Part shown: positions 33,711 through 61,522 of the stretch, piece by piece
How positions within the stretch are numbered: position 1 is the first letter of the stretch
Layout: each line of letters begins with the position of its first letter
NCBI GenBank assembly: GCA_030156535.1
Contig: JASGMJ010000009.1
Coordinates: 5,237 to 69,236, forward strand
Direction of reading: 5' to 3'
DNA length: 64,000 bases
DNA from: Candidatus Sumerlaeota bacterium
GTDB lineage: Bacteria; Sumerlaeota; Sumerlaeia; SLMS01; JAHLLQ01
Position numbers and translations under genes: made by a program
Notes under the pieces: generated by a model
What the model was told of the DNA's origin: nothing
Database searches by the model: none
The model's input: only the letters and a program-made list of their open reading frames with translations

Positions 33711-33741
33711 CGGATCAAACCTCACACTTTCGTCAGTCGGT

Positions 33742-42130: not shown

Positions 42131-42192
42131 CGTGTCAAGCCGCGCAACGTGTCCACCCTTTTGCATATGCAAGCACAACGTGGCTTGACACG
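42131..42192. promoter_or_regulatory. Nested palindromic element in a 440-bp divergent intergenic region. A 14-bp inverted repeat (cgtgtcaagccgcg / cgtggcttgacacg, 1 mismatch) flanks a perfect palindrome TTGCATATGCAA.
   Basis: Seen directly. Each IR arm carries TTGACA (a -35-like hexamer) facing a divergent gene. Confidence 0.35.
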
Positions 42193-42483
42193 CGAAATCC
42201 TCCGCCCTTACATCCCCCCGCCACTGCGAGGGGCGTCGCGTTCAAGGCTCCATGGATTGTTGTTTTCCATGTCGAAGCCGTTCTGCTCTCCGTCTCTCCG
42301 TCTCCTGAAATGACTCTCTCGAGCCTTTTCCGTTTGTTCGGAAATCGGCAACGGGGAAGATTTCGTCTTCCCTCACCCACTTGATTCCCAATCCTGAAGT
42401 CTTGTTCGAGAGCACCTCGCATTGCGCTGCGCCAGTTGATCTGGCTTCTGTGACAGTAACAATTCCCCCAAGGTAGGAAATTA

Positions 42484-43845: not shown

Positions 43846-43938
43846 TCGCCTTCAACATTCGACTGCCGGCCGGGGGTCTTCTTTGACCGTTCCCCTCCCT
43901 GGCCGGCACATCTTCCCTCCCCCTACAAGAGCAAACTC

Positions 43939-44949: not shown

Positions 44950-44960
44950 GCAACAAACCC

Positions 44961-46256
44961 ATGACATCTCCCCTTATCCGCATCGAAGGTCCCACGCCGC
45001 TCTTCGGCGAAATCGACGTGCGTGGCGCCAAGAACGCCGCGCTGCCGCTCCTCATGGCCGCCGCGGCAGGCTCCGCGCCAGTCACACTGACGAACCTGCC
45101 CACGGAACTCCGTGACATCCAGGCCGAGATCGAAGCCCTGCGCTATATCGGCTGCAACGTCGAGCAGGCCGACGGCACCGCCACGCTCGCGCTCTCCGAC
45201 CCCACGACCACCGAGCTTCCCCCGGAAATCTCCGGCAAGATTCGCACATCCCTACTCTTCCTTGGTCTTCTGGCCGGCAGATTCGGACACGCGAAGATCA
45301 CCATGCCGGGGGGGTGCGATCTCGGTGACCGCAAGTTCGACCTCCATCTCGAAGGCCTGCGCCTTCTTGGGGCCGATATTCACGTCGACGAGCACTCCAT
45401 CGAAGTCACGGCCAAAAAGCTGAAGGGCGCCGACATTCACTTCTACCTTCCTTCAACCACCGGGACGGAGAACGTGATGATTGCGGCGTGCTTTGCCGAG
45501 GGCCGCACGCGCATCTTCAATGCGAACACCCGCCCCGAAGTCGCCGACCTTGCCGTCTGCCTCAACGCGATGGGAGCACGCATCTCCGTGCGCAACCGCG
45601 TCGTCGAAGTGGAGGGCGGCCGCCTTCTTGGTGGTGCCACGCACAAGGTGATGAAGGGCTGGGACGAAGCGGTGACGTACATTCTCGCCGCGGGACTCTC
45701 CGGGGGGGAAATCTGTATCCGGGATTTCAGCACCGACTTCATCCGCAACGATGTCGCCTACATGCGCGACGCCGGACTCGATGTTTTCGAATGGGGCGGA
45801 AATCTCTATGCCAGCGGCAAGGGCAAGAAGCTCCGCGCCTTTGATCTCTTCACGGCTCCCTATCCGGGAGTAAACTCCGACATGCAGCCGCTCTTCGCCG
45901 CCTTCGCCAGCAAGTGCGAGGGCTCGACGAGTGTCACCGACCAGCGATTCACCGAACGCTTCCAATACGCCGCCGAACTCCGCAAGATGGGCGTGCCGAT
46001 CGAATCCTACGGCAATTGCGCCGTGATCGAAGGACCTGCCCGCCTCAAGGGCGCCAATGTCCGCGCGCTCGATCTGCGTTGCGGAGCCGCCCTTGTCATG
46101 GCCGGCCTTGCCGCGGAAGGCACGACGGTCATCGACAATTGCCAGCAAATCTATCGCGGCTACGAGCTTCTCGTTCCGCGCCTTCGTTCGCTTGGGGCCA
46201 ATATCAGCGGCGAGACCGAAGAAACAAATGTCCGGTTGCAACCCTCTCATGCCTGA
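44961..46256 (+). CDS. murA: UDP-N-acetylglucosamine 1-carboxyvinyltransferase paralog (MurA-like enolpyruvyl transferase) embedded in the polysaccharide cluster
   Basis: KNAALPLL motif and active-site Cys loop GGCDLGDRKFDLH. ~430 aa, EPSP-synthase-fold repeats. Confidence 0.85.
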   Translation: MTSPLIRIEGPTPLFGEIDVRGAKNAALPLLMAAAAGSAPVTLTNLPTELRDIQAEIEALRYIGCNVEQADGTATLALSDPTTTELPPEISGKIRTSLLFLGLLAGRFGHAKITMPGGCDLGDRKFDLHLEGLRLLGADIHVDEHSIEVTAKKLKGADIHFYLPSTTGTENVMIAACFAEGRTRIFNANTRPEVADLAVCLNAMGARISVRNRVVEVEGGRLLGGATHKVMKGWDEAVTYILAAGLSGGEICIRDFSTDFIRNDVAYMRDAGLDVFEWGGNLYASGKGKKLRAFDLFTAPYPGVNSDMQPLFAAFASKCEGSTSVTDQRFTERFQYAAELRKMGVPIESYGNCAVIEGPARLKGANVRALDLRCGAALVMAGLAAEGTTVIDNCQQIYRGYELLVPRLRSLGANISGETEETNVRLQPSHA

Positions 46257-47208
46257 ATCCGGCGCGCTTCTCAAGCCGCCGGGTGAACACATCGTCGGCA
46301 CTGTTCGCTGCAACGAGCCACTCTGTCTCCACGCAAACTGGGAGATTGGCGGGCCTGCGGACTACTTGCTCGAACCTGCCAGTCCCGCGCAGCTTGCCGC
46401 CGGACTGCAATGGATTCGCGAGAACTCTCTTCCCTTTGCCATCATTGGTGACGGCACAAACATCCTCTTTCCCGACGAGGGGTTTCGTGGCGCGATCATC
46501 AAGATTGGCCGCCGGATGAGCAGCCATCGCATCGAGGGCATGACGATCGACGCGCAGGCAGGCGCGTGGATTCCCAGTCTTGCACGCATTGCCGCCGCCG
46601 CCGGCATTGGTGGCATGGAGCACACGATCGGCATTCCAGGCACGCTGGGCGGACTTGTTCTGATGAATGGCGGCAGCCTGCGGAAAAGCATCGGGACCAT
46701 GGTGCGCCGCGTCTGGGCACTTGATCGCGAAGGCAATGAGCACCAACTCGATCATGAGGAGTGCGCCTTCGAGTACCGCAAGTCCGCGCTCCAGTCCAAC
46801 GGTCTCATCGTCACGCGGGTGCTTCTCGAAGGTACGCCGCGCGATCCCGGCGAATCCCGGCGCGAAATGCTCGACATCATTCGCAAACGCCGCCTGAAGT
46901 TTCCCAAGAAGCTCCCGAACTGCGGTTCCGTCTTCATCAGCCGCCCCGAAATGTACGACACCTACGGCCCTCCGGGAAAGATCATCGAGGAGACCGGCCT
47001 CAAGGGGACGCGTATTGGCGGCGCCATGATCCCCGATCTGCACGCGAATTTCATCGTCAACGCGGGAGGCGCCACGGCGGCCGACATCAAGAGCATGGTT
47101 CGGCTCGTCCGGGAAAAGGTGCATGCCCGCACCGGTTTCTGGATGATCTGCGAAGTGCGCACTCTCCTGCCCGACGGTTCTTTCCGCCCCGTCCACGAGG
47201 TCCTCTAG
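46228..47208 (+). CDS. murB: UDP-N-acetylenolpyruvoylglucosamine reductase (MurB) paralog. An alternative start is at 46249.
   Basis: FAD-binding PCMH domain (FAIIGDGTNILF), and C-terminal KLPNCGSVF and GGAMIP..HANFIVN MurB motifs. It overlaps murA. Confidence 0.85.
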   Translation: MSGCNPLMPESGALLKPPGEHIVGTVRCNEPLCLHANWEIGGPADYLLEPASPAQLAAGLQWIRENSLPFAIIGDGTNILFPDEGFRGAIIKIGRRMSSHRIEGMTIDAQAGAWIPSLARIAAAAGIGGMEHTIGIPGTLGGLVLMNGGSLRKSIGTMVRRVWALDREGNEHQLDHEECAFEYRKSALQSNGLIVTRVLLEGTPRDPGESRREMLDIIRKRRLKFPKKLPNCGSVFISRPEMYDTYGPPGKIIEETGLKGTRIGGAMIPDLHANFIVNAGGATAADIKSMVRLVREKVHARTGFWMICEVRTLLPDGSFRPVHEVL

Positions 47209-47217
47209 CTCCACCAC

Positions 47218-47787
47218 ATGGGACTCTTCGCTTGTTTCTCCCAAGACCTTCGCGCGCGTGGCCGCCGCGTTCCCGGGCCGGGTGCCCTGCTTGCCCGCTA
47301 CTTGTTCAATCCGGGCTATCGCGTCGTTGTTCTCTACCGTCTTGCCGAGTGGCTCCGCCGTCTGCCGTTGCCGATGCGCATCGGCCGTCTGTTTGCCCTC
47401 GCGATTCTGACGCGTCTTTCCCGTGTTCCCGGCGTCGAGATTCGCACTCGCCAGCCCATCGGCGAGGGCGTGGTGTTTCCACATCCGCACGACATCGTCA
47501 TCGGCGGGGGAGCCCGCATTGGCCGCAACGCGACCATCTATAACGGTGTGACGTTTGGGGGTAAAGGGGGCGACATCGAGGACGAATCCGGCGATCTGTT
47601 TGCCCGCTATCCGCGGATTGGCGACGACGTGATTGTTTATCCCGGTGCAAAGATCATTGGGCCGGTGGAGATCGGCTCGCGCTGCGTGATCGGAGCCAAC
47701 TCCGTTGTTCTTCAGTCCTTTGATGAAGACTGCGTGATTGCCGGAGTTCCAGCACGTCTTGTCAGGCGGATATCCCGTGAATCGTAG
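47218..47787 (+). CDS. Hexapeptide-repeat acetyltransferase (serine O-acetyltransferase-like / polysaccharide O-acetyltransferase)
   Basis: Left-handed beta-helix hexapeptide repeats (IGRNATIYNGVTFGG, IGDDVIVYPGAKIIG, IGANSVVL). Confidence 0.75.
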   Translation: MGLFACFSQDLRARGRRVPGPGALLARYLFNPGYRVVVLYRLAEWLRRLPLPMRIGRLFALAILTRLSRVPGVEIRTRQPIGEGVVFPHPHDIVIGGGARIGRNATIYNGVTFGGKGGDIEDESGDLFARYPRIGDDVIVYPGAKIIGPVEIGSRCVIGANSVVLQSFDEDCVIAGVPARLVRRISRES

Positions 47788-49165
47788 TACCGGGCCGTCA
47801 CGGCAACGGCCTCCCCAGGAAACCTTTGCAAAGTCCAGTGTCCAGACGATCGGTGTTCGCTTTATCCTTCTCGTGGCGAACTTCGGAACGGGCATCATTA
47901 CGGCACGCTGGCTCGGCCCCGAAGGTGTTGGCCTGTGCGCCCTGCTCTACATGATCAAGGACGTTGCCTTTCGATTCGGCAACCTTGGCATCGGGACGGC
48001 CTTCTCGTTCTTCATTGCGCGCAAGCTCGCCGGCACGCGGCGCCTCACTTTTCTCGCCTGGGTTCTCGGAGCAACTCTCGCGCTCGTGAGCAGCGGGGTT
48101 CTCCTCGCCATTCGCAAGCAGGCCTGGAGCCCCTGGAACAACGTCGATCTGCCGCTGTTCCTCCTCGCGTTGGGCACCGTTCCCGTGATGTATCTCACGA
48201 CGTTCTTCCAGCGCATCCTCAGCGGCCAGCTCCGCATTACACCCGTCAATGTTTCCAGCATCATCGGCGACTTCGCTCAGTTCGCCGGGCTTGTTGTTTT
48301 CATCGTGATTCTGCCTTGGGGGATTGCTGGCGCCGTTCTCGCCCTCCTTGTCAGCGACCTTCTCCGGCTCTCGTACCTTGTCCTGACGATGATTCGATTT
48401 CCATTCGATGACGAGGACAAAGCCCACGCCGACGACGCAAAGCCTGCGAGGGAATTGATTCCAGCCATTTGGCGCTATGGCCGCTGGCAGTACCTCATTA
48501 TGTTCGCCATGTATCTGGTCGAGGAGATGCCCATTCTCCTGCTCAAGGGAATCACGATGAACGATTCCTTTGTCGGCTTCTTTGCCCGCGCCCGTGGGCT
48601 GGGGCGCCAGACACGCCTGATGACGATGCCGATTTCACAGGTGCTGTTCCCCTTTACGGCGGCCTCCGAGGAAAAGGTCGCCGTTCGCCGCACCAACATG
48701 TTGTGCCGAAACCTCCTGATGATTTCGACTGTCGGCATCGCCTTTTCCTGTCTCATCATCGAGCCCGTCATTGTGTTCCTCTACGGCGAGGAGTTCCGCA
48801 CGGCGGCGTCGGTTTTCTATGTCCTGGCGCCAGGCGTGATCAGTTGGCCAATCGGCCATTTCCTGGCCACGCATCTCTCCGCCTCGGGCGAGCCGCACAA
48901 GGTCTTCTGGGCCTCGCTCCCTCCCGTTATTGTCGGCGGCATTGTTGGCTACTGGCTTGTTGGCGCCTACGGCGTTGTTGGCGCCGGCATGACGGCGACG
49001 ATCATCTACACCCTGCAAACATTCGTGCGTCTCCTGCAATACCACGCAACCTATACCACCACGTACCGCGAGATCCTTGTTGTTACCAGCGAGGATCTCG
49101 CGCGCTACAAGCAGCTCCCATCGCTCGTCATGGGCCGTCTGCGCAGAAAGCCCGCTTCTTCATGA
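47738..49165 (+). CDS. Wzx-like oligosaccharide flippase (MOP superfamily polysaccharide biosynthesis protein). The true start is probably downstream of 47738, possibly non-ATG.
   Basis: 12-14 TM helices and a PST-family-like composition. It lies within the glycan cluster and has a 50-nt overlap with the upstream gene. Confidence 0.65.
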   Translation: MPEFQHVLSGGYPVNRSTGPSRQRPPQETFAKSSVQTIGVRFILLVANFGTGIITARWLGPEGVGLCALLYMIKDVAFRFGNLGIGTAFSFFIARKLAGTRRLTFLAWVLGATLALVSSGVLLAIRKQAWSPWNNVDLPLFLLALGTVPVMYLTTFFQRILSGQLRITPVNVSSIIGDFAQFAGLVVFIVILPWGIAGAVLALLVSDLLRLSYLVLTMIRFPFDDEDKAHADDAKPARELIPAIWRYGRWQYLIMFAMYLVEEMPILLLKGITMNDSFVGFFARARGLGRQTRLMTMPISQVLFPFTAASEEKVAVRRTNMLCRNLLMISTVGIAFSCLIIEPVIVFLYGEEFRTAASVFYVLAPGVISWPIGHFLATHLSASGEPHKVFWASLPPVIVGGIVGYWLVGAYGVVGAGMTATIIYTLQTFVRLLQYHATYTTTYREILVVTSEDLARYKQLPSLVMGRLRRKPASS

Positions 49166-50349
49166 ATGCACCAGCCACCGAGCCCCGCGTCCTCTTCTTT
49201 ATTTCCGTCATGGGACACGGACGGGGCGGCCACTTCTATAGCCTTCGTACGACGGCTGAGGCTCTATCCGCGCACTTCCCCTGCCGGATTGTGATGCTTG
49301 GCAAGAAAGTCTCTCCCGTCATTGCTTCCTCCTCCGTCCCCCATTCGCTTGTTCGCGCAACGGGATGGAATCATCCGGCGGCCGTGCTTGCCATCAAGCG
49401 CGAGATTCGCGAGTTCCGTCCCACCGTCCTGCATTCCTTTGATGTCTCCAGTCACGGGTTGGTCCGCGCCGCAGGGGTATTGAGCAGGCTGCCCGTCGTG
49501 ATGACCAAAGCAGGAGGCCCCAATCCCAAGCGTTTCTTTCCGCGCGCGGACCACATTGTACTCTTCAGCAAGGAGAACGCCGACTTCTTCGCGGCGCATC
49601 CCAAGTTCCGCCGCGCACGCCGCTATCACATTCCCAACCGAGCTGTCGAAATCCAGGACGACCCCCGCCGCATCGCCAAGGCTCGCGCCACGCTCGATCC
49701 CAACCGTCCCACGTTCTTGCGCATCGCACGATTCAACCCTCACTATCGCGAGAGTCTGGTCCAGGCGGTCAACCTCGTAAAACGCCTGAACGGGGATGGT
49801 GCGCCCTGCCAGCTCGTGCTCATCGGTACCCCACAGATTCCGGCCGTTTACGGCGAGATTCTCGCTCTGCGCGACGAGCACATCCACATCTTTGCCGAGG
49901 ACGAGTACACCGTCGAAGCGAGCCAGCTACTTGGCCTTGCCGATTTTGTTGTCTCCACAGGCCGCTCCATCATGGAAGCCAGCAGCAAAGGGAAAGTCCT
50001 GCTGACGCCCTATGCAGGCGGCACGATCCCCGTTCTCGTCACTCCGGAGAACTTCCAGTCGTTCTTTGAGACCAACTTTTCGCCGCGCAATTCGCTTGCC
50101 GACTACAACGAAGAGGCCAACTACGCGCGGCTACGCACCCTGGTTACTGATCGCTCTCAGGCAGATCAACTCAAGAACCAGTCGCGCGAATGGTTCGACC
50201 GCCATTTCAGCATCCACGGTGCCATCGACGCTTACCGTGACGTCTACGAAACCGCCATGAGAGTTGGAGTTGGCTCTCCGCATCCTGTGGATGCTCTCCT
50301 TAACTCGGCCCTCTCACTTCGCCATTATGCCCGCGCAGCCAATGAATAA
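49162..50349 (+). CDS. Glycosyltransferase (GT-B fold, GT4-like)
   Basis: Size and context. ATGA overlap with the flippase. The start is an internal ATG of the long 48469 ORF. Confidence 0.6.
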   Translation: MNAPATEPRVLFFISVMGHGRGGHFYSLRTTAEALSAHFPCRIVMLGKKVSPVIASSSVPHSLVRATGWNHPAAVLAIKREIREFRPTVLHSFDVSSHGLVRAAGVLSRLPVVMTKAGGPNPKRFFPRADHIVLFSKENADFFAAHPKFRRARRYHIPNRAVEIQDDPRRIAKARATLDPNRPTFLRIARFNPHYRESLVQAVNLVKRLNGDGAPCQLVLIGTPQIPAVYGEILALRDEHIHIFAEDEYTVEASQLLGLADFVVSTGRSIMEASSKGKVLLTPYAGGTIPVLVTPENFQSFFETNFSPRNSLADYNEEANYARLRTLVTDRSQADQLKNQSREWFDRHFSIHGAIDAYRDVYETAMRVGVGSPHPVDALLNSALSLRHYARAANE

Positions 50350-51532
50350 TCCGCCCACAGCCTCATCTCCGGTTCGTGAAGAGGGACGTCCCCTTTTGAT
50401 TGTGGGCGATCTGTGCCCCATCAATGCGAATGAGTCTCTCTTTAGAGAAGCGACCTCTCCCGAGGATTTCGGCGGCGAGTGGACAGCCCTTTTTCACAAG
50501 GCAGCTTACTCGATCGCTAATCTGGAGTGTCCGCTAATCGAGTCCCCCTCTCCGGTGATCAAGACCGGTACGGTTATTGGGGCGCCACACGAGACGGCCA
50601 CAGGTCTCTCCCAACTGGGGCTAAAGGCCGTCAGTCTCGCCAACAACCACATAATGGATCATGGTGCGGCGGGGCTCACCACCACCATGAATACCTTGCA
50701 GGGAATCGGAATCGAGCACTTCGGAGCCGGTGATTCTGATGTTATTGCCCGGCGGCAGCATGAGTTCATGTTGGGTGGGCAGAGCGTCATTGTCTTTTCT
50801 GCAGCTGAGCATGAGTTCTCTATCGCGGGCCCGGGTACTCCTGGAGCAAACGGACTCGATCCGGCTCGTCTTGTTCTGGATGTTCATCGTGCCGCCGAGG
50901 CAGGCAAGTTTGTGATCGTTCTGCTTCATGCCGGCAAAGAGTATCACCCCTACCCGCCGCCCGCTCTTCGCGCCCTGTGTGCCGTCCTTGTCGAGGCCGG
51001 AGCCCGCTGCATTGTCTGCCAGCATTCTCATTGCATGGGGGCCATCGAGCGCTTCAACGACAGCGTTGTGTTCTATGGCCAGGGCAACTTCCTGTTTGAC
51101 TGGCACACGCGCCGGCCAGCCTCGTGGTATGAGGGCTTCCTGATTGAACTGGCCATTGATGATTCCGGAAAATTCGATTTCGACCTCCATTGCCTGAAGG
51201 CCGAGAGGGGACGACCGGGAACCCGTCTTCTCGCTCCCGAAGAGTCCACCGCCATACGCGAGCGTCTGTGCGCGATGGGGGCTCAATGCTCCGATCCACT
51301 TTTTCTGGAAGCCGAGTGGCGCCGCTTGTGCGACGCGAAGGCTGCGTTGTATTTCGCCATACTCCGAGGCCACGGGAGAATCCGGCGGGCTCTTGACGCG
51401 AAGATTGGCAGGATCCCCGCACACAAGGGAGAAGAGCTCACGACGCTCCTCAATATAATACGATGCGAAAGCCATCGAGAGGTTCTTTTGACAATCCTGG
51501 AACAAGCCCATGCAGCACGGAAAGGCTCGTGA
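50327..51532 (+). CDS. CapA/PGA_cap-family metallophosphatase-like protein
   Basis: GDLCPIN...LECPL...LANNHIMDHG...HAGKEYHPYP...CQHSHCMGAIE...VFYGQGNF pattern typical of CapA (calcineurin-like). Confidence 0.65.
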   Translation: MPAQPMNNPPTASSPVREEGRPLLIVGDLCPINANESLFREATSPEDFGGEWTALFHKAAYSIANLECPLIESPSPVIKTGTVIGAPHETATGLSQLGLKAVSLANNHIMDHGAAGLTTTMNTLQGIGIEHFGAGDSDVIARRQHEFMLGGQSVIVFSAAEHEFSIAGPGTPGANGLDPARLVLDVHRAAEAGKFVIVLLHAGKEYHPYPPPALRALCAVLVEAGARCIVCQHSHCMGAIERFNDSVVFYGQGNFLFDWHTRRPASWYEGFLIELAIDDSGKFDFDLHCLKAERGRPGTRLLAPEESTAIRERLCAMGAQCSDPLFLEAEWRRLCDAKAALYFAILRGHGRIRRALDAKIGRIPAHKGEELTTLLNIIRCESHREVLLTILEQAHAARKGS

Positions 51533-53141
51533 CTCTATGAATACATCGCGCGCCCATGAATTGGAATCGCCTCTTCACCTCTATCAGGCCGCCCGCTATC
51601 AGAGTGCGGATGGAAAATGGCACGACAAATTCGACTCCGCTGTAGAGGCACTTCCGGCGGAATGCCATGTCTTGACCTCTTCGATTTTGTCGCTTCTCTG
51701 TTTCAGTCAAGTCTGTGGGAACGCAACGCTCCTGCGGGAGATCGTTCGCCAACCGTGGCTCTCGTCCATAAATCCTGATGGAACAGTCAAGCTTTCCGAG
51801 ATTCCTCCGCACGGCTTTCTCGCTCCTTCGGTTGATACAATCGGGAAGGAACTCCTGAGCCGCCTGGAAGCGGAAGCGGAACGAGTTTGTTCGCGATTCT
51901 CCCGCGTTTATCTTCTTCTTTCCGGTGGACTCGACAGCCGGATCATCGCTGGTGTCACGGCGAAGCTTCATCGCAAGGGGATTTTGAAGGAAGCCCCCGT
52001 TGCCGTTACATGGGGATTCGCGGATTCCCGAGACGCCCACTATGCAAGGAAGATCGCTGAGCACTACAACTTTGAATGGATCAACATCCCCTTTGGCCCA
52101 AAGGAGGTGGAGGTCAACATCTCGGAGACCGCTTTGCACCTGGGGGCGCTCCATTCACCCGAGATGCTCCACTACATGACCTGGTTTGAGCGCATCGAGC
52201 CTGATGCACTTGTTCTCGCTGGCAGCTTTGGCGACTCGATCGGTAGGGCAGAGTTCTCCGGCCGGCACCTGCTGGAGTTGAATGAGTTCAAGCCCTCCGA
52301 CCCGTTTTCCCTGCTAAAGCCGGAGGTACGTGGCGCTTCGATTCAGGGCGTCAAGCGTGCGATTGCCGAGCTTGGCGAGCGGGCACCTGGAGCACCCAGG
52401 CATGCCAAGCTTGAGCACTACATGCAGGGATACCGGATGCGAGGGAACCTCTGCCATGCGTTGGGGCTCATCAACAGATACGCAACCATTTACCAGATGT
52501 TCACGGACCCAAGCGTCTATGGCTACATGTGGTCGCTTCATCCATCGTCTCGTACAGACGAAGTGTATGCGAGCCTGCTGGAGGAACTGGACCCCTTTCT
52601 GGCGCGCCTCCCCTGGGCTCGTAACAACAAGGCCGTGAGAGGGAAGACGGCCGGTGCCGAGCAGCGCCTGCTTGCCGCCTATCACGACTACACGGGATGG
52701 TCGGCAGGTCCATTGCGCAGCCATCTGGAAAAGCTCGTTGATCCTGAATGGTTTGAGGCTCAGGGCGTCTTCAATCCTGATGCGCTTGTCGCCATGCGCA
52801 ACACGGTCGCTACGTCGACAACCCGTGTCGGGCGAATCAACGACGTTTGGCTCTGGCTTGCCGGATTCCGCGTCATGGTTGACCACCTGGAACAAACGGG
52901 CCGCAAGATCTCCTACGAGATTCCCGAGCCAATGGATGGGAAGGGCCAGATCAAGGACGAGAGCAGAAGTCTAAAGGTGACCGTTCTCTCTCCTCTCCTG
53001 CGCACAGCCCAGCGTTCTGCTCCGCTTACTGCTTTCCTCAAGGAATGTCGAACGAGATTCCGCCATCTCAAGCGTCTCCGCTTGCGCGCACAGGCACTGA
53101 AGGAATTCCCGCCCACAATGGGGAGCCATGATGCCTCATGA
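51510..53141 (+). CDS. Asparagine-synthetase-family amidotransferase-like protein (PP-loop synthetase domain) lacking the N-terminal Cys nucleophile. WbpS-like sugar-amidating enzyme candidate.
   Basis: PP-loop LLLSGGLDSRIIAG. The N-terminus MQHGK has no MCG glutaminase start. Confidence 0.65.
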   Translation: MQHGKARDSMNTSRAHELESPLHLYQAARYQSADGKWHDKFDSAVEALPAECHVLTSSILSLLCFSQVCGNATLLREIVRQPWLSSINPDGTVKLSEIPPHGFLAPSVDTIGKELLSRLEAEAERVCSRFSRVYLLLSGGLDSRIIAGVTAKLHRKGILKEAPVAVTWGFADSRDAHYARKIAEHYNFEWINIPFGPKEVEVNISETALHLGALHSPEMLHYMTWFERIEPDALVLAGSFGDSIGRAEFSGRHLLELNEFKPSDPFSLLKPEVRGASIQGVKRAIAELGERAPGAPRHAKLEHYMQGYRMRGNLCHALGLINRYATIYQMFTDPSVYGYMWSLHPSSRTDEVYASLLEELDPFLARLPWARNNKAVRGKTAGAEQRLLAAYHDYTGWSAGPLRSHLEKLVDPEWFEAQGVFNPDALVAMRNTVATSTTRVGRINDVWLWLAGFRVMVDHLEQTGRKISYEIPEPMDGKGQIKDESRSLKVTVLSPLLRTAQRSAPLTAFLKECRTRFRHLKRLRLRAQALKEFPPTMGSHDAS

Positions 53142-53400
53142 CGCTTGCAGGCCGAGGTGTTTTTCGCGGAAAGAAGTCTGCGCCATTGGCGCTGCCCCGC
53201 CTGTGAATCAGTTGCCACGTCATTTGGGCACGACGGGATTGCACAGGATTTACCTCCTTGACGTGGGTGTGGGCGAATGATCCGGAGGGTGGGCGGAAGG
53301 GCTGATGAGCCTCGCGGAAGCGACTTTCGCCAGAGCCCCCGCTTTGGCCGGCAGCTCTCTCGTCTGCCCAGATCTATAGAAGCAATCAGAAGGGCATCCA

Positions 53401-54744
53401 ATGCAGGCTGAGCAAACAATGAACGCCACTACCGCTTTACCCCCCTCCTCCTTCAGGGTGGTGCGGAAAGACGACAAGAGCCGCGCTGATGTGCCTTTCT
53501 GGGATTCCATCACGGCTGGCATTCTTTGTTTTGGATTGGTCTACCTGACATTTACCGACTGGCTGGTCGAGTATTTCAATCAAGACATCTTTGTCGCTAT
53601 CAGCCGTTTTTCCCGTGCCATTCTTCTCGGTTACTTCCTGTACTATTTGGCGCGTACTGGTTTTTCGTTCACCCGGTATGGCTTTCGTTTTGGCGGAATG
53701 CTGTTCATTCTGGCCATTTCACTTTTCGTCTACGCACTGTTCGACAACCATGTGCTCGAAGGGCTATATGCGTACGTTCGTACTCTGCATTGGATTATCG
53801 GTATAGTTGTCGCCTATCGTCTGGTGAGAAGCGGGGCTCTGACTCTTGAAAAGCTGGCGAATGCAATACGTGCCATTATTGTGATCGCAGTTGTGTTTAC
53901 TCTTTTCTATATGCGCACACCTGCTTTTGAGACCAGTTACAACGCCAGCGCCTACCCTTTGCTCTACACTCTTCCACTCCTGTTGATGAGGCCCAAACTC
54001 GGCGCCAAGGACCTGATCTTTCTCGCCATGGCTGTCCTTGGCATTATCGTCACAGTCAAGCGCGGGGCTGTGCTGGGGCTTGGGGCGTCTGTTCTTACGT
54101 ATCTTGTCTGTGCCTTCTATGTTACGCGCAGTGCCCGCCATGTTACCCGCCTCATCATGCTCTCGTTTGTTCTTCTCGTTGCGATTTCGGCAACGGCGGC
54201 CTGGCGATGGGAACGAATCCAGGAGAGAACCACGGACGAGAAGTTGCTCGATCCCCAGAAGGGTGGCTCCGGGCGCTTCGGATTGTGGAGGCGAATTTAC
54301 TACAACTGGTCCAGTGGCGACACGACGGTCATTCTGTTTGGCCGTGGCAATCGTACGCACATGTTTACGCATCCAAATCCCAAGCGTATTGTTCACGCGC
54401 ATAGCGATTTGTTTGCCTTCCTCCATGATCAGGGATTGTATGGCGTTCTCCTTCTGGGCCTCTTTCATCTCTCCTATCTCCGAATATTGTTCCCACTTCT
54501 ATTCCGGAGGGATGCGCGTGCGCCTTCCTTTGCGATGGGCTATGTTGTCTTGTGTTGCGTGAATCTTTACTCCGGCGCTTTTAAGGACCCCAATTTCCTG
54601 GTGTTTGCCCTTCTGATCTCCTACGTGGCCGGAACGAGTGCCAAGCCGCCTGCGCGCTACTTCTTCCTTCTCAATCCCCCTCCTGATCCGCCCGCCTCCG
54701 AGGAGGTCAAGGCACAGGCCTTGGTTCATGACCCGGTCTCCTGA
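53401..54744 (+). CDS. Wzy-family O-antigen/capsule polymerase (Wzy_C domain), low-GC gene
   Basis: ~10 TM helices. HAHSDLFAFLHDQGLYG resembles the Wzy_C motif. Local GC is ~45% vs ~65% background. Confidence 0.65.
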   Translation: MQAEQTMNATTALPPSSFRVVRKDDKSRADVPFWDSITAGILCFGLVYLTFTDWLVEYFNQDIFVAISRFSRAILLGYFLYYLARTGFSFTRYGFRFGGMLFILAISLFVYALFDNHVLEGLYAYVRTLHWIIGIVVAYRLVRSGALTLEKLANAIRAIIVIAVVFTLFYMRTPAFETSYNASAYPLLYTLPLLLMRPKLGAKDLIFLAMAVLGIIVTVKRGAVLGLGASVLTYLVCAFYVTRSARHVTRLIMLSFVLLVAISATAAWRWERIQERTTDEKLLDPQKGGSGRFGLWRRIYYNWSSGDTTVILFGRGNRTHMFTHPNPKRIVHAHSDLFAFLHDQGLYGVLLLGLFHLSYLRILFPLLFRRDARAPSFAMGYVVLCCVNLYSGAFKDPNFLVFALLISYVAGTSAKPPARYFFLLNPPPDPPASEEVKAQALVHDPVS

Positions 54745-55876
54745 CGTTCCGGCGGTTCTGATCGCTACGAAGGATGCCGAAAGCCGGGGAGGGGTCGCGG
54801 GATACTACCGCCTCTTCTTCGAGCGCTACGCTCACTCTTCGCCGCGCATCCTCCGCTTCGAGATCGGTTCACGCTCGAAGGATTATTACCGGCGCACCTC
54901 CCGCCCGGTGGCCTATGCTCTCGATTTGCTTCGGGATCTTTGGCGCCTTGGTGCTCTGCTGCGGCGCGACCGTTCCATTCGCGTTGTGCATGTGAACCCC
55001 TCCCTGATTCCGGTTCCTCTGCTGCGCGACGGTCTCGCCATCTTGGTAGCCCGTTTGCTGCGGCGCAGGACACTCGTTTTCTACCGAGGCTGGGATGAGT
55101 CGGAAGTCGCGCGCATCGACCGGTCATCCGTACTCCGAACTCTGTTTCGCGCCGTTTTTGGACACGCGGATCATTCGATTGTCCTCTCGGAGGGATTTGT
55201 TCCGCCTCTTCTCCGTTGGGGCGTCCCCTCCGGAAGCATCAGTGTCTCGAAGACGATGTTCGACGGCCGACTTGTCCAGATGCCTGTCGACCGAACGGGT
55301 CAGCCCCCACGCATCGTTTTTCTCAGCCGCGTCAGTCCCCTCAAGGGCGTCGGCGAACTCCTCCAGGCCGCCGCGGCTCTCCATCGCGAGGGGCATCAAT
55401 TCTCACTCGACATCTACGGCCATGGGGCCACGGACACAATCATCGCCGAACTCGAAGCCATGGCCCATCGCGAGGGGCTCGACGGAATTTGCCGCTTCCC
55501 CGGTTTCGTGGATGGGCCCGACAAGTACGCGGCACTCGCCGACACCGACATCTTCGCGCTTCCGTCATATCAAGAGGGGTGCCCCAACGCCGTGACAGAG
55601 GCCCTCGCTTCAGGGGCTTTTGTGGTCTCAACGCGCGTTGGGGCGATACCCGAGCTCGTCACGCAGGACTATCAGGGCTCGCTGGTCGAACCGCGCGACA
55701 GCCAGGCACTGACAGAGGCGCTCCGCAGTGCACTCGAGAACATCGATGCCATTCGTGGTGGCGCCCTGCGCCGCCGAGCCGCCGCGCTGGAGTCCTTTGA
55801 GGCTGACATCATCATCAAGCAAGTCCACCAAATCTACGGTACTCTCCTTGAGTCACCTTCCCCGGCGAATCAATGA
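54728..55876 (+). CDS. Glycosyltransferase family 4 (retaining GT-B)
   Basis: EX7E motif region PSYQEGCPNAVTEALASGAFVV. It starts at the internal ATG of the long 54638 ORF. Confidence 0.85.
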   Translation: MTRSPDVPAVLIATKDAESRGGVAGYYRLFFERYAHSSPRILRFEIGSRSKDYYRRTSRPVAYALDLLRDLWRLGALLRRDRSIRVVHVNPSLIPVPLLRDGLAILVARLLRRRTLVFYRGWDESEVARIDRSSVLRTLFRAVFGHADHSIVLSEGFVPPLLRWGVPSGSISVSKTMFDGRLVQMPVDRTGQPPRIVFLSRVSPLKGVGELLQAAAALHREGHQFSLDIYGHGATDTIIAELEAMAHREGLDGICRFPGFVDGPDKYAALADTDIFALPSYQEGCPNAVTEALASGAFVVSTRVGAIPELVTQDYQGSLVEPRDSQALTEALRSALENIDAIRGGALRRRAAALESFEADIIIKQVHQIYGTLLESPSPANQ

Positions 55877-57096
55877 CCAAGCCTTCATCCGAACCGATCG
55901 TCTACATCGTAACTCCCTTTGAGAACCGAATGGCAAAGCGGGGAACGCGCTTGCCCGTCCTGGCAGACATGCTGGCCGACCGGGGATTCCAGGTGGAGTA
56001 TCTCACGACGAATTTCAGCCATGCCTACAAGCGTCACTTCACTGAGGAAGAAATCGCGACGGAGCAGGCAAAGCTGAAGTACCGGATGACCGTCTTCTCT
56101 GTTCCCGGTTATCGTTCGAACATCTCGGTGCGGCGTATTATCTGCAATCTCTTGATGGCTTGGCAGATCTGCCTGCATCTGACAAGGAAGCTGCGCAGAG
56201 ACAGCGTCATCGTTGTTCCCTCAAGGCCAGTGGAGTTGGTCTTTTGCATCGCCATCGTCAGGCGCTTGCGTGCGTGCCGGGCAGTCCTGGATATCCGCGA
56301 CATTTGGCCGGATGCGCTGATGATTCGCAGCGCCCCGAAGAAAGCTGTATTTTCCGCTTACTGCAACATCCACCTTCATCCGTCTCTTGCGCGCTACGAC
56401 AGGTACGTCCACATCTCTCCCAGCTTCGTCGATTGGCTGCACCGATACGCCCCGGCCAAGGACTCCATTTTTCTCCCTCCGGGTTTCGATGCATGGCGTT
56501 GGGAGGGGCTGACCAAGAAGGACTATACTGCTTTTCCCCAGCCGCTGCGCATTGTGTGCGTCGGCCTGCTCCAGCACCAGATCGACGTCATGCCGGTCCT
56601 TGAGGCGTTGGTTACCCGCCCCGACGTCACCCTCACGATTGTGGGTGATCCCGGAGAAGGCCAGAGGTACCCGAAGGTGAAGGCGTTCATCGAGGAACAC
56701 CGCATGGCGAACGTGGAGCTCATCGGCGCCGTTCCCCCCGAGCGCATGCGCGACTACCTGGCCGACAAGCACATTGGTCTGGTTCCGATGATCTCCGACT
56801 CGATTCCGAACAAGGTTTTCGACTACATCGGCGCCTTTTTGCCCATTCTTGCTCTTGGTGATTTCGACACAGCAGATTTTGTCGAAGACCAGGGAATCGG
56901 ATGGCGTGCGGGATTCGACGGAGAGTCGGTTGGGAAACTCTTGGACGCCCTGAGTGTCTCCGATCTTCGCGAGAAGTCGCACCGTGTCGCCGAGATACGC
57001 GACAGTTGGAACCGCGAGACGCTCTTTGAGAAATTTATAGATATCATTACGAGCCTGCTGCCTGAGGGCGCTCGAACTAGGAAGGTTAAGTCCTGA
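55873..57096 (+). CDS. Glycosyltransferase family 4-like (WbuB/TuaC-like)
   Basis: GT-B architecture with a C-terminal LVPMISDSIPNKVFDYIGAFLPIL region. ATGA coupling to the upstream GT. Confidence 0.7.
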   Translation: MTKPSSEPIVYIVTPFENRMAKRGTRLPVLADMLADRGFQVEYLTTNFSHAYKRHFTEEEIATEQAKLKYRMTVFSVPGYRSNISVRRIICNLLMAWQICLHLTRKLRRDSVIVVPSRPVELVFCIAIVRRLRACRAVLDIRDIWPDALMIRSAPKKAVFSAYCNIHLHPSLARYDRYVHISPSFVDWLHRYAPAKDSIFLPPGFDAWRWEGLTKKDYTAFPQPLRIVCVGLLQHQIDVMPVLEALVTRPDVTLTIVGDPGEGQRYPKVKAFIEEHRMANVELIGAVPPERMRDYLADKHIGLVPMISDSIPNKVFDYIGAFLPILALGDFDTADFVEDQGIGWRAGFDGESVGKLLDALSVSDLREKSHRVAEIRDSWNRETLFEKFIDIITSLLPEGARTRKVKS

Positions 57097-59246
57097 TGGA
57101 ACAACTCACTCAGAAACTCGGCTCCGGCGAGATGAAAATCCAGGAAGTCCCCGTTCCCCAACTTGGGGCGGGCGAAGTCCTCGTCCAGAATCATTATTCG
57201 CTCATCAGCAGCGGCACCGAAGGCTCCACCGTCAAGACGGCGCGCAAGGGACTCATCGGCAAGGCGAAGGAACGCCCGCAGCAGGTGAAGCAGGTCCTCG
57301 ACGTTTTGCGGAAACAGGGACCCGTCCAGACCTACCGCGCTGTGATGAAGAAGCTGGAAGCGTACTCGCCGCTGGGCTATAGTTCCGCGGGCATCGTTGT
57401 CGACGTGGCCACCGATGTGCGTGGCATCGCCGTTGGCGACCGCGTGGCCTGTGCGGGTGTTGGCTATGCGAATCATGCCGAGTTCGTTGCCGTCCCCGAG
57501 AACCTTGTTGTCAAGCTCCCCGCCGATGCCGATCTCAAGCGCGCGTGCTACAACACGCTCGGCGCCATCGCGCTTCAGGGAGTTCGCCAGGCCGACCTGC
57601 GCCTGGGCGAGTCGTGCGTCGTGATCGGCCTTGGCCTCATTGGCCAGCTGACGTGCCTGATGCTGCGCGCCAGCGGTGTTCGCACGTTCGGGATCGACGT
57701 CGATCCCGCAGCAGCGCAGACGGCGCGCACGCATTGCGCCGACGAGGCATGGGCGCGCTCCGAGCCCGGCGTCGCCGAACGCATCGACGAACTCACCGGT
57801 GGCCTGGGCTCCGACGCCGTCATCATCACGGCAGGCACCAGCAGCCTCGACCCCATCAACTTTGCCGGACGCCTCGCCCGCAAGAAGGGGCGCGTCGTTG
57901 TTGTCGGTGCCGTTCCCACCGGCTTCGACCGCGATCCCCACTACTACCGCAAGGAACTCGATCTGCGCATGTCGTGCTCCTATGGGCCGGGACGCTATGA
58001 TCTCGACTACGAGGAGAAGGGGCTCGATTATCCGGCCGCTTATGTTCGCTGGACAGAGAACCGAAACATGCAGGCCTTCCAGCACCTCGTGCATTCAGGC
58101 TCACTCGATCTCGACTACCTTAGCACGCACGAGTTCGCCTTCGAGGAAGCCGCCGGTGCCTACGATCTGATCGTCGCACGCTCCGAGCCCTTTCTTGGCA
58201 TCGTTCTGAAGTACGACACGTCGAAGACGCTCAAGCGCGAGCCCATCGCACTCAGGGCCCCGCGCCCCGCAGGCCGCGTGCACCTCGCTTTCATCGGTGC
58301 GGGCAGCTACGCGCAGGGCAATCTGCTGCCGAATATTCCGGAGGATGGGAAGATCATTCGCCGGGGAGTCCTGACGAACTCTGGTACAACCTCCAAGCGT
58401 GTCGCAGAGCGCTTCTCCTTCGAGTTCTGTGCCGACCAGGAAAGCGACCTCCTGGCAAACGACACGATCGACACCATCTTCATCGCGACACGCCATGATT
58501 CCCACGCGGACTACGTTTTGAAGGCGCTGCGCGCGGACAAGCATGTCTTTGTGGAGAAGCCTCTTTGTCTTCGAGAGGACGAACTCGAAGAGATCAGCAC
58601 CGCCTTCGCCGACCGGGCCGCCGGCAAAAATCCCGCTCACCTCCTTGTCGGCTTCAACCGCCGTTTCGCTCCACTGGCCGTTGACCTCAAGAAGTCGCTC
58701 GGCAGTGGTCCGATGGCGATGATCTATCGGGTCAACGCGGGGGCGATTCCGCCCGATACGTGGATTCAGGATCCCGATATCGGCGGCGGCCGCATCGTCG
58801 GAGAAGGATGCCATTTCATCGACTTCCTCGCGTTCCTCTGTGGATCGCTGCCCGTGTCCGTTTCGGCAATGGCCGTGCCCGATCCCAACGCGCTCAACGA
58901 CACTGTCAGCATTTCGATCACCTTCGCGAATGGGTCGATCGGAACGGTTCACTACTTCGCCAACGGATCGAAGGAGTTGCCGAAGGAGTACGTCGAAGTC
59001 TACCAGGCGGGGCGCACGGGAATTCTCCGCGACTTCAAGGCACTCGAAATCTATGGGAGCGGCAAGCCGAAGAAGCAGAGCCTCGTGAATCAGGACAAGG
59101 GCCAGGCCGTAATGGTTCGACGTTTCATCGAAGCGATTTGCGACGGCGCCGACCCTCTGATTGCATTCGAAGAAATTGCCGCAGTGACCCGCGCCACCTT
59201 TGCCGCGCATCACTCGCTGCAGTCCAAGCAAACCGTCGTTCTCTGA
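57096..59246 (+). CDS. Bi-domain oxidoreductase: N-terminal Zn-dependent alcohol dehydrogenase (MDR) fused to a C-terminal Gfo/Idh/MocA dehydrogenase
   Basis: N-terminal GroES-like + Rossmann (VIGLGLIGQL), then a second Rossmann AFIGAGSYAQGN and an EKP motif (VFVEKPLCL). Confidence 0.8.
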   Translation: MEQLTQKLGSGEMKIQEVPVPQLGAGEVLVQNHYSLISSGTEGSTVKTARKGLIGKAKERPQQVKQVLDVLRKQGPVQTYRAVMKKLEAYSPLGYSSAGIVVDVATDVRGIAVGDRVACAGVGYANHAEFVAVPENLVVKLPADADLKRACYNTLGAIALQGVRQADLRLGESCVVIGLGLIGQLTCLMLRASGVRTFGIDVDPAAAQTARTHCADEAWARSEPGVAERIDELTGGLGSDAVIITAGTSSLDPINFAGRLARKKGRVVVVGAVPTGFDRDPHYYRKELDLRMSCSYGPGRYDLDYEEKGLDYPAAYVRWTENRNMQAFQHLVHSGSLDLDYLSTHEFAFEEAAGAYDLIVARSEPFLGIVLKYDTSKTLKREPIALRAPRPAGRVHLAFIGAGSYAQGNLLPNIPEDGKIIRRGVLTNSGTTSKRVAERFSFEFCADQESDLLANDTIDTIFIATRHDSHADYVLKALRADKHVFVEKPLCLREDELEEISTAFADRAAGKNPAHLLVGFNRRFAPLAVDLKKSLGSGPMAMIYRVNAGAIPPDTWIQDPDIGGGRIVGEGCHFIDFLAFLCGSLPVSVSAMAVPDPNALNDTVSISITFANGSIGTVHYFANGSKELPKEYVEVYQAGRTGILRDFKALEIYGSGKPKKQSLVNQDKGQAVMVRRFIEAICDGADPLIAFEEIAAVTRATFAAHHSLQSKQTVVL

Positions 59247-59273: not shown

Positions 59274-61253
59274 ATGCCTTCTCTCTCATGGTACCGCCAA
59301 CGCCTCTCCGCGATGAAGCCCGCAGAGCTTCCATGGCGTCTGCGGCGCAAAATCGCTGCAGAAGCCGGGCGCTTTCGAACCTGGCCTCAGGCCGCTGATC
59401 TTGCACCCGCTGCCTTCTGGCGTAGCGGTGTTTCCCCCATGCAATTCGCGGCGGGAAATGACTCCCGCCTTCCGCATCGCCCCGGGGCAGAGGAACTTGC
59501 CGCGTGGCCAGCGGAATGGCGCGAGCGATGCATCGCCGAAGCCGAGGACGTTCTTGCCGGCCGCGTGACGTTCTTTCATCTCGACCGACACCAGCTCGCC
59601 GATCCCATCGATTGGTCACGTGATGAAGACAGCGGTCTCTCCGTCCCTGTTTTCTATTCCCCCAAGCTCGACTACCGGGATCCGGCGCGCGTAGGCGACG
59701 TCAAAATCATTTGGGAACTCAATCGCCTCCAGCACCTCGTGCGTCTGGGCCAGGCGTGGCTCCTGACACGCGACGAGCGTTTTCCTGCTGCGGCCTGCCG
59801 TCTTGTCGAATCATGGATCGCGGCGAATCCGTGGATGCACGGCATCAACTGGACAAGTGCCATGGAGGCCGGACTCCGCGCGCTCTCGCTCACGTTTCTT
59901 TTTGAATACATCCGCGACTGGCCCGGCATGGAAGCGCGCTTCGTGCAGTTGCTCGCCGCTTCCATCCATCAACATCTCTCATTCATCGACTCGCACTACT
60001 CGCTTCATAGTTCCGCCAATAATCATCTCGTGGCCGAAGCCAGTGGCGCCGCCGTTGCCGCCGCCTACTGGACGCCTTTGCGCAACGCCGCTGCCTGGCA
60101 CGAACGCGCGCGCGCACTTCTCGAACGCGAGATCATCAACCAAAACCACCCCGACGGCGTGAACAAGGAACAGGCGTTCCTCTACCAGTTCTTCGTCTTC
60201 GATCTTTTTCTCCTTCCAGCTCTTCAAGCCCGGCGTAGTGGCCGGGCTTTTTCGTCTGCGTATCACGAGCGGCTCGAACGCATGGCCGAGTTCCTCGCAT
60301 GGGTCACTGATGCGCGCGGCAATACCCCCAACGTTGGCGACCAGGATGACGGCCGGGCCCTGCAGCTGGCTGGTCCTCACGAGTCCACCTGGCCGTCGCT
60401 CTGCCATGCCGCTGGTTGCTTCTTCCAGCGGGCCGACTTCCTTCGGTGGGGGAGTGGCACGCTCGACGAGCGCAACGCCTGGCTCTTTCGCCCGGATGAA
60501 AAAGAACCTTACCTTGCTTTGTCCGCCCAGGCAGACGCCGCCCCGCCCCGGCGCACGCGTCTCTTTCCCGATGGCGGCTATGCCGTCCTGCGGGAGGGTG
60601 AAGGCGATTCCGAGTTTCTCGCCTTGTTCGATGTCGGACCGCATGGATGGCCTGCCACTGCTGCCCATGCTCATTGCGATGCCCTCTCGCTTATCGTGCA
60701 CATTGGCGGGCATCCCGTGCTGGTCGATCCAGGCACGCACTCCTATCGCGACGGCAAGTGGCGTCGTTTTTCTCGCTCCGCTGCCGCGCACAACACGGTG
60801 GCCTTTTCTGGCACCGAGCAGGCGGAATATCTGAATCGTTTCATGTGGGGTCGTCAGCCCTCTATCACTCTAGGCGAATGGACGAATGATGATAAGGGTG
60901 TTTCCGTGGCCGCTTCAGTGGTCTGGCATACGGGCCAGCGGCACACGCGCCAGGTCGAGTTTTGCCCCCGCCAAGGGCGTCTCACTGTCAGTGACAGCTG
61001 GTCAGGGGCGGGCTCCGCAGTCTCTCTTGGATGGTTGCTCGCCACTGACGTAAAGGCACTTGGCTCTGATGAGGCACTCCGAATCTCCGTCGGAACGCGG
61101 GAGTGCATTCTCCATTTCGAGGGAGCAACTCCGCAACTGGTCGCGGCGCTTCACTCCCCGGTTTGCTATCGGTTCCGCGAGACCAGCAGGTACCAGGCGG
61201 AATTGGAGACAAATCAGACATCAACTATAACGGAGTTTATTTGTCCTGCATAA
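59274..61253 (+). CDS. Heparinase II/III-like (alginate-lyase-superfamily) protein
   Basis: ~660 aa. Alpha/alpha-toroid-like N-terminal half (NWTSAMEAGLRALSL, HSSANNHLVAEA), then HAHCDALS...VDPGTHSY...AAHNTV typical of heparinase II/III C-terminal domains. Confidence 0.6.
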   Translation: MPSLSWYRQRLSAMKPAELPWRLRRKIAAEAGRFRTWPQAADLAPAAFWRSGVSPMQFAAGNDSRLPHRPGAEELAAWPAEWRERCIAEAEDVLAGRVTFFHLDRHQLADPIDWSRDEDSGLSVPVFYSPKLDYRDPARVGDVKIIWELNRLQHLVRLGQAWLLTRDERFPAAACRLVESWIAANPWMHGINWTSAMEAGLRALSLTFLFEYIRDWPGMEARFVQLLAASIHQHLSFIDSHYSLHSSANNHLVAEASGAAVAAAYWTPLRNAAAWHERARALLEREIINQNHPDGVNKEQAFLYQFFVFDLFLLPALQARRSGRAFSSAYHERLERMAEFLAWVTDARGNTPNVGDQDDGRALQLAGPHESTWPSLCHAAGCFFQRADFLRWGSGTLDERNAWLFRPDEKEPYLALSAQADAAPPRRTRLFPDGGYAVLREGEGDSEFLALFDVGPHGWPATAAHAHCDALSLIVHIGGHPVLVDPGTHSYRDGKWRRFSRSAAAHNTVAFSGTEQAEYLNRFMWGRQPSITLGEWTNDDKGVSVAASVVWHTGQRHTRQVEFCPRQGRLTVSDSWSGAGSAVSLGWLLATDVKALGSDEALRISVGTRECILHFEGATPQLVAALHSPVCYRFRETSRYQAELETNQTSTITEFICPA

Positions 61254-61522
61254 CCTCATTGTCCGCTTGCGCCTGTTTGTTCGCTTCAAGTAGGCGCTTC
61301 ATTGAAAACACATTTTTGTGTCACAAGTTAGCACTGGACACGCGGGAAATGCTTCCACTAATGTCCGCTCCACTATTGAGTTAGCACTTGGTCACTAACC
61401 CACATAACGTTCCTACAAAGCAATGAACCTCGGTTAACGTCAGTGCAGGGTGGCGAAAGACCCGGCTGCTCTACACCAATTCAGAATCAATCGAATCACG
61501 GACAGGCGGGCGGCTATGCCTG
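61254..61522. promoter_or_regulatory. Lower-GC intergenic region with a direct repeat AGTTAGCACTGG / AGTTAGCACTTGG and the partial palindrome GTTAGCACTTGGTCACTAAC. Probable promoter/operator for the wecG-wecB unit.
   Basis: Seen directly. The TTAGCAC core recurs in other intergenic sites (12786, 30022). Confidence 0.3.

Follow-up and report, generated by a model that had tools for sequence, protein, structure and literature searches.

The DNA considered here, hereafter the window, is a 64-kb stretch of a metagenome-assembled genome (MAG) of an uncultured Candidatus Sumerlaeota bacterium whose proteins carry PWP23_ locus tags. Within its polysaccharide locus, five adjacent genes at 50300–57100, encoding CapA-like, AsnB-like and Wzy_C-family (Wzy) proteins and two GT4 glycosyltransferases, form a block of lowered GC content. 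The question raised by this locus is whether the block is a horizontally exchanged, serotype-determining cassette within a conserved export and biosynthesis frame, as the original prediction for this DNA proposed. Our data show that the compositional anomaly is real, though modest, that it is confined to three of the five genes, and that gene content and order are the same in the relatives; horizontal or homologous replacement is the single most likely cause, and the serotype cassette in a conserved frame is not borne out. The features of the block are as follows.

50342..51532, plus strand: CapA-like protein; PF09587 (PGA_cap), 154.6 bits; GC 57.8%, GC content at third codon positions (GC3) 0.63 against 0.75 expected
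51537..53141, plus strand: AsnB-like protein; PF00733, 42.2 bits, residues 123–212; GC3 0.65
53142..53400, no strand: AsnB–Wzy spacer, lineage-specific; 259 nucleotides (nt), 60.2% GC, host-like inside the low-GC segment
53401..54744, plus strand: Wzy_C-family membrane protein, putative repeat-unit polymerase; PF04932, 29.1 bits, gathering score 31.7
54728..55876, plus strand: glycosyltransferase GT4b; Glyco_trans_1_4, 103 bits; GC 62.2%, GC3 0.69 (background level)
55873..57096, plus strand: glycosyltransferase GT4c; Glyco_trans_1_4, 33.6 bits; GC 56.9%, GC3 0.71
50145..55222, plus strand: low-GC3 segment, the true extent of the anomaly; GC3 0.629 against 0.742, 2*deltaLL 74.7

The AsnB, Wzy and GT4b proteins of the window are identical to PWP23_1244 to PWP23_1246, encoded on a contig of 147,880 bp, the Wzy protein being MDK2971490.1, and the gene identities first assigned (PGA_cap/CapA, Asn_synthase, Wzy_C and two GT4) were confirmed by Pfam.

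The window has a mean GC content of 61.5%, with 57.4% at 50300–57100 and 62.0% in the remainder. The block is the lowest-GC 6.8-kb interval of the 64 kb (57.37%, minimum starting at 50301; mean 61.5%, standard deviation 1.8%), and the lowest-GC 4.5-kb interval begins at 50101. By tetranucleotide z-scores, its 5-kb segments also correlate least with the remaining sequence (0.43–0.45 against 0.65 ± 0.08, ranks 1–4 of 60). The size of the contrast was nevertheless overstated: Wzy, put at about 45% GC against a background of about 65%, actually has 53.0% (GC3 0.61), and the two 60-nt samples taken, although correct (40.0% at 53521–53580 and 66.7% at 8521–8580), are unrepresentative of gene GC.

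Expected GC was calculated for each gene from its amino acids and the codon usage of the genes at 1–31 kb. This reference set was picked partly by high GC3; the real-looking genes that were skipped also have GC3 of 0.72–0.85, which indicates that the background is unbiased, and a biased GC3 background was rejected on these grounds. The GC3 deficit is limited to CapA (0.63), AsnB (0.65) and Wzy (0.61), for which about 0.75 is expected. The shift towards AT is chiefly synonymous; the first and second codon positions are displaced less, and most so in CapA and AsnB (−0.04 and −0.06). Amino-acid composition as the sole cause was also rejected, as it explains about 3 of the 9 points in Wzy (58.9% predicted from amino acids alone) and almost nothing in CapA and AsnB. 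GT4c, on the other hand, is low in GC mostly because of its amino-acid composition (59.0% predicted from it alone), and GT4b is at 62.2%; the claim that all five genes are less GC-rich thus holds for CapA, AsnB and Wzy, fails for GT4b, and is true of GT4c only through its amino acids.

To determine how far the anomaly extends, the plus-strand operon was segmented by in-frame GC3 under maximum likelihood with two breakpoints. These fell close to where CapA begins and Wzy ends (50145 and 55222); the change is abrupt, not graded. Atypical composition, the first property expected of a genomic island, is therefore present, though modest, in three of the five genes and relative to a 64-kb background. 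It should be noted that GC3 is also low outside the block in the heparinase-like (0.66), VanZ (0.65) and hexapeptide acetyltransferase (0.67) genes. All genes with GC3 of 0.67 or less fall in the polysaccharide locus, and the confident genes outside it have 0.70–0.85. Further GC dips (54.6–57%), similar in depth to much of the block, occur at 36500–38000 and 41000–43000, where intergenic or divergent-promoter regions, VanZ and the beginning (5' portion) of the Wzc gene are located.

For comparison with relatives we used as an anchor the two-domain oxidoreductase directly downstream of the block, and the scan covered one genome per species. The flanking genes to which the block is compared are the following.

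49159..50349, plus strand: GT4a, left flank; weak Glyco_transf_4 match; GC3 0.70, normal composition
57096..59246, plus strand: oxidoreductase (zinc-ADH + GFO/IDH/MocA, by Pfam), right flank; GC3 0.76
59274..61253, plus strand: heparinase II/III-like protein; PF07940, PF16889; GC3 0.66

The best anchor match was in a Candidatus Sumerlaeia MAG (locus L001, 79% amino-acid identity), followed by matches of 50–70% across many phyla. The relatives compared were L001 and L081, L086 to L089 with the complete locus, and L083, a short fragment of a congener (JGI 3300048591). L081 is the same species as L001 (99.1% DNA identity) and L087–L089 are the same as L086, so that neither set adds an independent lineage; L086–L089 themselves form a third lineage (86.5% DNA identity to L001). 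L001 is fully colinear with the window from the acetyltransferase through the 2-epimerase, block included, and in L086–L089 this gene order is kept over the complete locus, VanZ through WecG.

The five block genes are thus the same set in the same order in both lineages with a complete locus. No patchy presence or absence of the block was seen among L001/L081, L086–L089 and L083, and no replacement by non-homologous genes in L001/L081 or L086–L089, a sample that includes no strain of the window's own species. A comparison with related strains had been proposed as a check for replacement of the block; for gene content we found the outcome named in advance as speaking against exchange. Since block content is constant in all available relatives, a swapped serotype cassette is not demonstrated, and the dip is an ordinary compositional patch. 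Where the relatives do differ in gene content, the difference is not in the block: L086 has an additional sulfotransferase and L001 a toxin–antitoxin insert.

Amino-acid identity between the window and L001 is 58% for CapA (56% to L086), 60% for AsnB, 47% for Wzy, 39% for GT4b and 47% for GT4c, with 52–79% in the flanks. GT4a is 68% identical to both L001 and L086, the oxidoreductase 79–80% identical to the Sumerlaeia copies, and the heparinase-like protein 54–55% identical to L001 and L086. Between L001 and L086, identity is equal in the block (89–95%) and the flanks (86–96%). The 1.4-kb L083 fragment, which covers only GT4b and GT4c, aligns without gaps to window positions 55140–56583 (1,444 nt, 84.7% DNA identity, same composition), with 84% amino-acid identity for GT4b and 90% for GT4c. 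Metagenome scans with AsnB and GT4c gave no close relatives, and nothing that would extend the L083 congener into CapA–AsnB–Wzy.

The dip is absent from the relatives. In L001 and L086 the block has GC3 of 0.82–0.87, level with its neighbours, and this equality with the flanks indicates that the shift towards AT is specific to the window lineage. The difference in GC3 between the window and L001 is −0.22 for CapA, −0.21 for AsnB and −0.26 for Wzy, and −0.10 to −0.16 for most neighbours (−0.01 for Wzx and −0.08 for the hexapeptide acetyltransferase). In L092, an outgroup of 61% GC with the same module of genes, GC3 is 0.82 for Wzy and 0.74 for CapA. A low GC3 intrinsic to these genes was therefore rejected, the same genes being normal in L001, L086 and, for Wzy and CapA, L092.

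The phylogenetic affinity of the block genes was assessed against the outgroup loci with the module (L025, L090, L091 and L092; 500 bootstraps), together with a divergence ratio, that is, the window-to-L001 distance divided by the distance to an outgroup. The nearest homologues of CapA are the Sumerlaeia copies (56–58%; next at most 44%, among 1.84 billion representatives), as are those of AsnB (60%; next at most 51%) and Wzy (47%; next 36%, from Allochromatium). For CapA, AsnB, Wzy and the oxidoreductase, the window and L001/L086 are reciprocal nearest neighbours in 500 of 500 bootstraps. Divergence ratios are 0.44–0.49 in the flanks, 0.54 for CapA, 0.68 for AsnB, 0.99 for GT4b and 1.01 for GT4c.

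Among the block genes, Sumerlaeota monophyly is broken by GT4b and GT4c alone (window 54728–57096; L001:7660–9944; L086:14104–16418). The window GT4b is 39–40% identical in amino acids to L001 and L086, which are nearer to the outgroups L092 (56%) and L090 (48–50%); L001 was nearer to the window than to any outgroup in 0 of 500 bootstraps. For GT4c, identity is 47–48%, L001 and L086 are nearer to L025 (53–55%) and L090 (52%), and the corresponding count was 2 of 500. Despite this discordance, the GC3 of both genes is near normal in both lineages. Phylogenetic discordance with the flanks, a second island property, is thus not seen for CapA, AsnB and Wzy and is confined to GT4b and GT4c. The full concordance of CapA–AsnB–Wzy against the discordance of GT4b–GT4c shows that the compositional and phylogenetic anomalies do not coincide; the discordance is independent phylogenetic evidence pointing to separate histories for parts of the block. 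Odd composition in a phylogenetically well-behaved segment beside odd phylogeny in genes of normal composition is a caution for island calling by GC alone, and low GC within a polysaccharide locus is no automatic sign of a swapped serotype cassette.

The gene order GT4–CapA–AsnB–(Wzy)–GT4–GT4–oxidoreductase–heparinase-like–WecG recurs in unrelated, mostly low-GC lineages, in which only the position of Wzy varies and the CapA-like gene always adjoins the AsnB-like gene. Because the block co-occurs across phyla with the oxidoreductase, heparinase-like and WecG genes, the supposed cassette and part of the supposed frame are one module. The fused zinc-ADH + GFO/IDH/MocA oxidoreductase is found at 50–70% identity in Planctomycetota, Desulfobacterota, Bacteroidota, Gammaproteobacteria and others (L002–L080), often adjoining WecG-like, heparinase-like and 2-epimerase genes as a widely shared polysaccharide sub-module. 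Composition within the module varies from gene to gene: GC3 spans 0.53–0.87 in L092, and in L091 the oxidoreductase has 0.70 amid genes at 0.33–0.41, the same contrast being seen in L082. These module loci are compositional mosaics, which suggests that gene-scale replacement between hosts of different GC content is common. It is possible, though we put it forward with some reserve, that the module is a coherent glycan-building set in which single genes or short runs are replaced homologously among hosts that differ widely in GC, the window dip being one snapshot of unusually active allele exchange between lineages.

The GC-rich oxidoreductase allele of these two contigs (L091:13445–15598 and L082:4342–5307) has 57.7–58.7% GC and GC3 of 0.70–0.72 and is about 68–70% identical in amino acids to that of the window. 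The contigs have 40–48% GC and the genes beside the oxidoreductase GC3 of 0.21–0.41, a mirror image of the window dip; either recent cross-lineage transfer or chimeric Logan contigs would account for it. Toxin–antitoxin-like pairs are inserted within the module at L081:7198–7811, in the same species as L001, and at L092:13687–14187 and 19930–20533 (PhdYeFM + partner, DUF4160/DUF2442 and PhdYeFM/PIN); there are none in the window or L086.

With a likelihood that we place slightly below even, the dip reflects homologous replacement of about 4.5–5 kb (CapA–AsnB–Wzy) by the orthologous segment of an unsampled relative of lower GC content. The operon would have been inherited whole within the Sumerlaeota clade, and the CapA–AsnB–Wzy sub-segment would then have been swapped allelically for orthologous DNA of that relative, recently enough that it has not yet drifted to host composition. 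This reading draws on the sharp segmentation, the most atypical tetranucleotides of the window, the lineage-specific shift, the mosaic module elsewhere and the separate histories indicated by GT4b and GT4c, and the shift at codon positions 1 and 2 in CapA and AsnB is what a long stay in a genome of lower GC would leave. As gene content and order are unaltered, any change in the structure of the polysaccharide is no more than possible.

Several observations weigh against replacement. Among 5.8 billion proteins or 1.84 billion representatives, the closest copies of CapA, AsnB and Wzy are those of the other Sumerlaeia, with no donor found, and the full reciprocal bootstrap support ties all three to these copies; CapA divergence is on schedule with the flanks (0.54 against 0.44–0.49). 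The block edges have no repeats, tRNA genes, integrases or IS elements, the genes lie close together, stop codons overlapping start codons, and both GC3 breakpoints fall at gene boundaries, which is equally compatible with gene-specific forces. The dinucleotide signature of 50–55 kb is only mildly atypical (rank 7–8 of 119), the most deviant in the window being that of 37–42 kb, and the compositional background is 64 kb of genome only.

Many of these observations are shared by the explanation that we rank as nearly as likely, namely that native, vertically inherited CapA, AsnB and Wzy lost GC3 in place in the window lineage as GC-favouring forces weakened, whether through weak codon selection in poorly expressed genes or through less biased gene conversion in the fast-evolving, recombination-poor core of the locus. 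Such drift fits the perfect synteny and reciprocal-nearest affinity with other Sumerlaeia, the flank-like divergence ratio of CapA, breakpoints at gene boundaries, the lack of mobile-element scars and the lowish GC3 elsewhere in the locus (heparinase-like 0.66, hexapeptide acetyltransferase 0.67, VanZ 0.65). It also fits the published observation that the poorest GC of a polysaccharide cluster is often that of wzx and wzy, which, as Reeves and colleagues remarked, 'needs explanation' (PMC3715488). However, there is no dip in L001 or L086, nor at Wzy and CapA of L092, so that the force would need to be specific to genes and to the lineage at once; the soluble enzymes CapA and AsnB share their operon with neighbours of normal GC3, and the compositional change is abrupt.

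A foreign serotype cassette, in which the five-gene block would be replaced by other genes in related strains with the frame constant, is improbable. The block does have the lowest GC and the most atypical tetranucleotides of the window, the phylogeny of GT4b and GT4c is discordant, and in such loci it is classically the Wzy and glycosyltransferase genes that vary (PMC3715488). But the block has the same content and order in L001/L081 and L086–L089 and the GT4b–GT4c pair recurs in L083, the low-GC genes group with Sumerlaeia copies, GT4b is not low in GC, block genes are found together with frame genes in a single cross-phylum module, and the gene-content differences of the relatives lie elsewhere. 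Least probable of all is an assembly artefact, a MAG consensus mosaic with about 5 kb from a co-occurring lower-GC relative population: the source is metagenome-assembled, the segment is orthologous and colinear as in a cross-population chimera, and in this module the Logan contig L082 shows a jump in GC that may be chimeric, but two exact switches would be needed at gene boundaries between populations too divergent for long shared k-mers, and L083 matches the right-hand side gap-free over 1,444 nt with the same composition.

The borders of the block were also searched for mobility hallmarks, a further island property, and none was found. The window contains no tRNA genes, and no integrases or IS elements were found among the Pfam matches for the locus genes. 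Repeats round the block are only short, chance-level ones, and promoter-like and terminator-like motifs there are at or below shuffled expectation. The AsnB–Wzy spacer has no similarity in any fetched locus and no Rfam match; in L086 the AsnB and Wzy genes overlap by 4 nt, and in L001 their matches lie about 50 nt apart. This spacer may represent an internal promoter or mark a past recombination event. One further intergenic region had been counted with the low-GC genes.

61254..61522, no strand: intergenic spacer, 50.2% GC; locus intergenics have 46.6%, 50.3% and 54.6%

At 50.2% it is ordinary among the intergenics of the locus (46.6–54.6%). It has no Rfam match, and the Rfam scan of 36–64 kb was likewise empty.

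The CapA-like start overlaps the GT4a stop by 8 nt, and its PDB relatives are labelled poly-gamma-glutamate synthesis protein, the nearest solved chains covering residues 88–180 only. In the AsnB-like protein, the asparagine synthase match is confined to the PP-loop synthetase part, PDB matches cover only residues 120–192, and no match to a glutaminase domain was found. Searches of NCBIfam and PDB left both proteins without a specific function. Wzy has at least six strongly hydrophobic segments, and the GT4b start overlaps its end. Going by family membership only, the glycosyltransferases and the polymerase would act on a sugar repeat unit, which the CapA-like/AsnB-like pair probably modifies.

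The rest of the polysaccharide locus contains the following features.

42484..49165, plus strand: UDP-sugar dehydrogenase, epimerase, MurA-like, MurB-like, hexapeptide acetyltransferase and Wzx (Pfam, NCBIfam)
47738–49165, plus strand: Wzx-type flippase (Polysacc_synt/MOP); PF01943, 49.3 bits (cut-off 28.2), and PF13440, 37.7 bits
32583..38871, minus strand: Wza-like, WecA-like, Wzc-like and second Wzy_C proteins, for export and initiation (Pfam)
32583–33866, minus strand: Wza-like protein; Poly_export and SLBB domains
33742–34923, minus strand: family-4 phosphoglycosyl transferase (WecA-like); PF00953, 131 bits
34920–37259, minus strand: Wzc-like protein; Wzz, GNVR and AAA_31 domains

The block and its surroundings form the middle of an operon for a Wzx/Wzy-dependent heteropolysaccharide (exopolysaccharide, capsule or O-antigen-like). 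A Wzx flippase, an initiating transferase and Wza/Wzc-type machinery are present in the locus; the Wza, Wzc and WecA-like genes are encoded divergently, upstream of the operon. The second Wzy_C protein (37408–38871, minus strand) scores 33.4 bits against 29.1 for that at 53401–54744 (plus strand), the gathering score being 31.7, and either of the two may be the polymerase, the other being a candidate ligase-like enzyme.

The locus resembles the O-antigen clusters of enterobacteria such as Salmonella, in that it is Wzx/Wzy-dependent, GC is lowest in the polymerase gene and neighbouring segments have unlike GC (PMC3715488). In the galactose-initiated O-antigen set of Salmonella, the central region has 28–37% GC against 51–52% (PMC3715488), which is usually read as transfer from a lower-GC source. 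The contrast in the window is small (53–58% against 62%), its glycosyltransferases are compositionally near normal, and its low-GC genes include two soluble enzymes, CapA-like and AsnB-like. Whereas Salmonella shows non-homologous replacement between serogroups, the window has identical gene content in all known relatives.

The strong PF09587 match (154.6 bits) relates the CapA-like protein to the PGA_cap/CapA (PgsA) family of poly-gamma-glutamate capsules; in contrast to these systems, it lacks PgsB/PgsC partners and is embedded in a sugar-polymer operon. By gene repertoire alone, the locus may resemble the B-band (wbp) O-antigen cluster of Pseudomonas aeruginosa for 2,3-diacetamido-mannuronic acid sugars, which we take only as a lead. 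The repertoire that we presume to be shared comprises a UDP-sugar 6-dehydrogenase, GFO-type 3-dehydrogenase, hexapeptide N-acetyltransferase, UDP-GlcNAc-type 2-epimerase, AsnB-like amidotransferase, GT4 transferases, Wzx/Wzy and a WecA-like initiator. Unlike wbp, the window shows no DegT-type aminotransferase, its dehydrogenase is fused to a zinc-ADH domain, and it has CapA-like, heparinase II/III-like and MurA/MurB-like genes. The finding has little importance beyond annotation, as an ordinary phenomenon in a little-studied phylum, and the CapA/AsnB-like/two-domain oxidoreductase/heparinase-like module, unsurprising in kind, may merit biochemical study.

In L086 and L087, an extra sulfotransferase-like gene (L086:3645–4460) lies between the epimerase and MurA-like genes and is not in the window (44950–44960). 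The MurA-like and MurB-like genes at 44961–47208 are inside the operon and conserved in L086; the former scores 387 bits on TIGR01072 (cut-off 392.7) and the latter 267 bits on PRK13905 (cut-off 259). This pair may provide a lactyl-ether (muramic-acid-like) sugar for the polymer or may be housekeeping copies.

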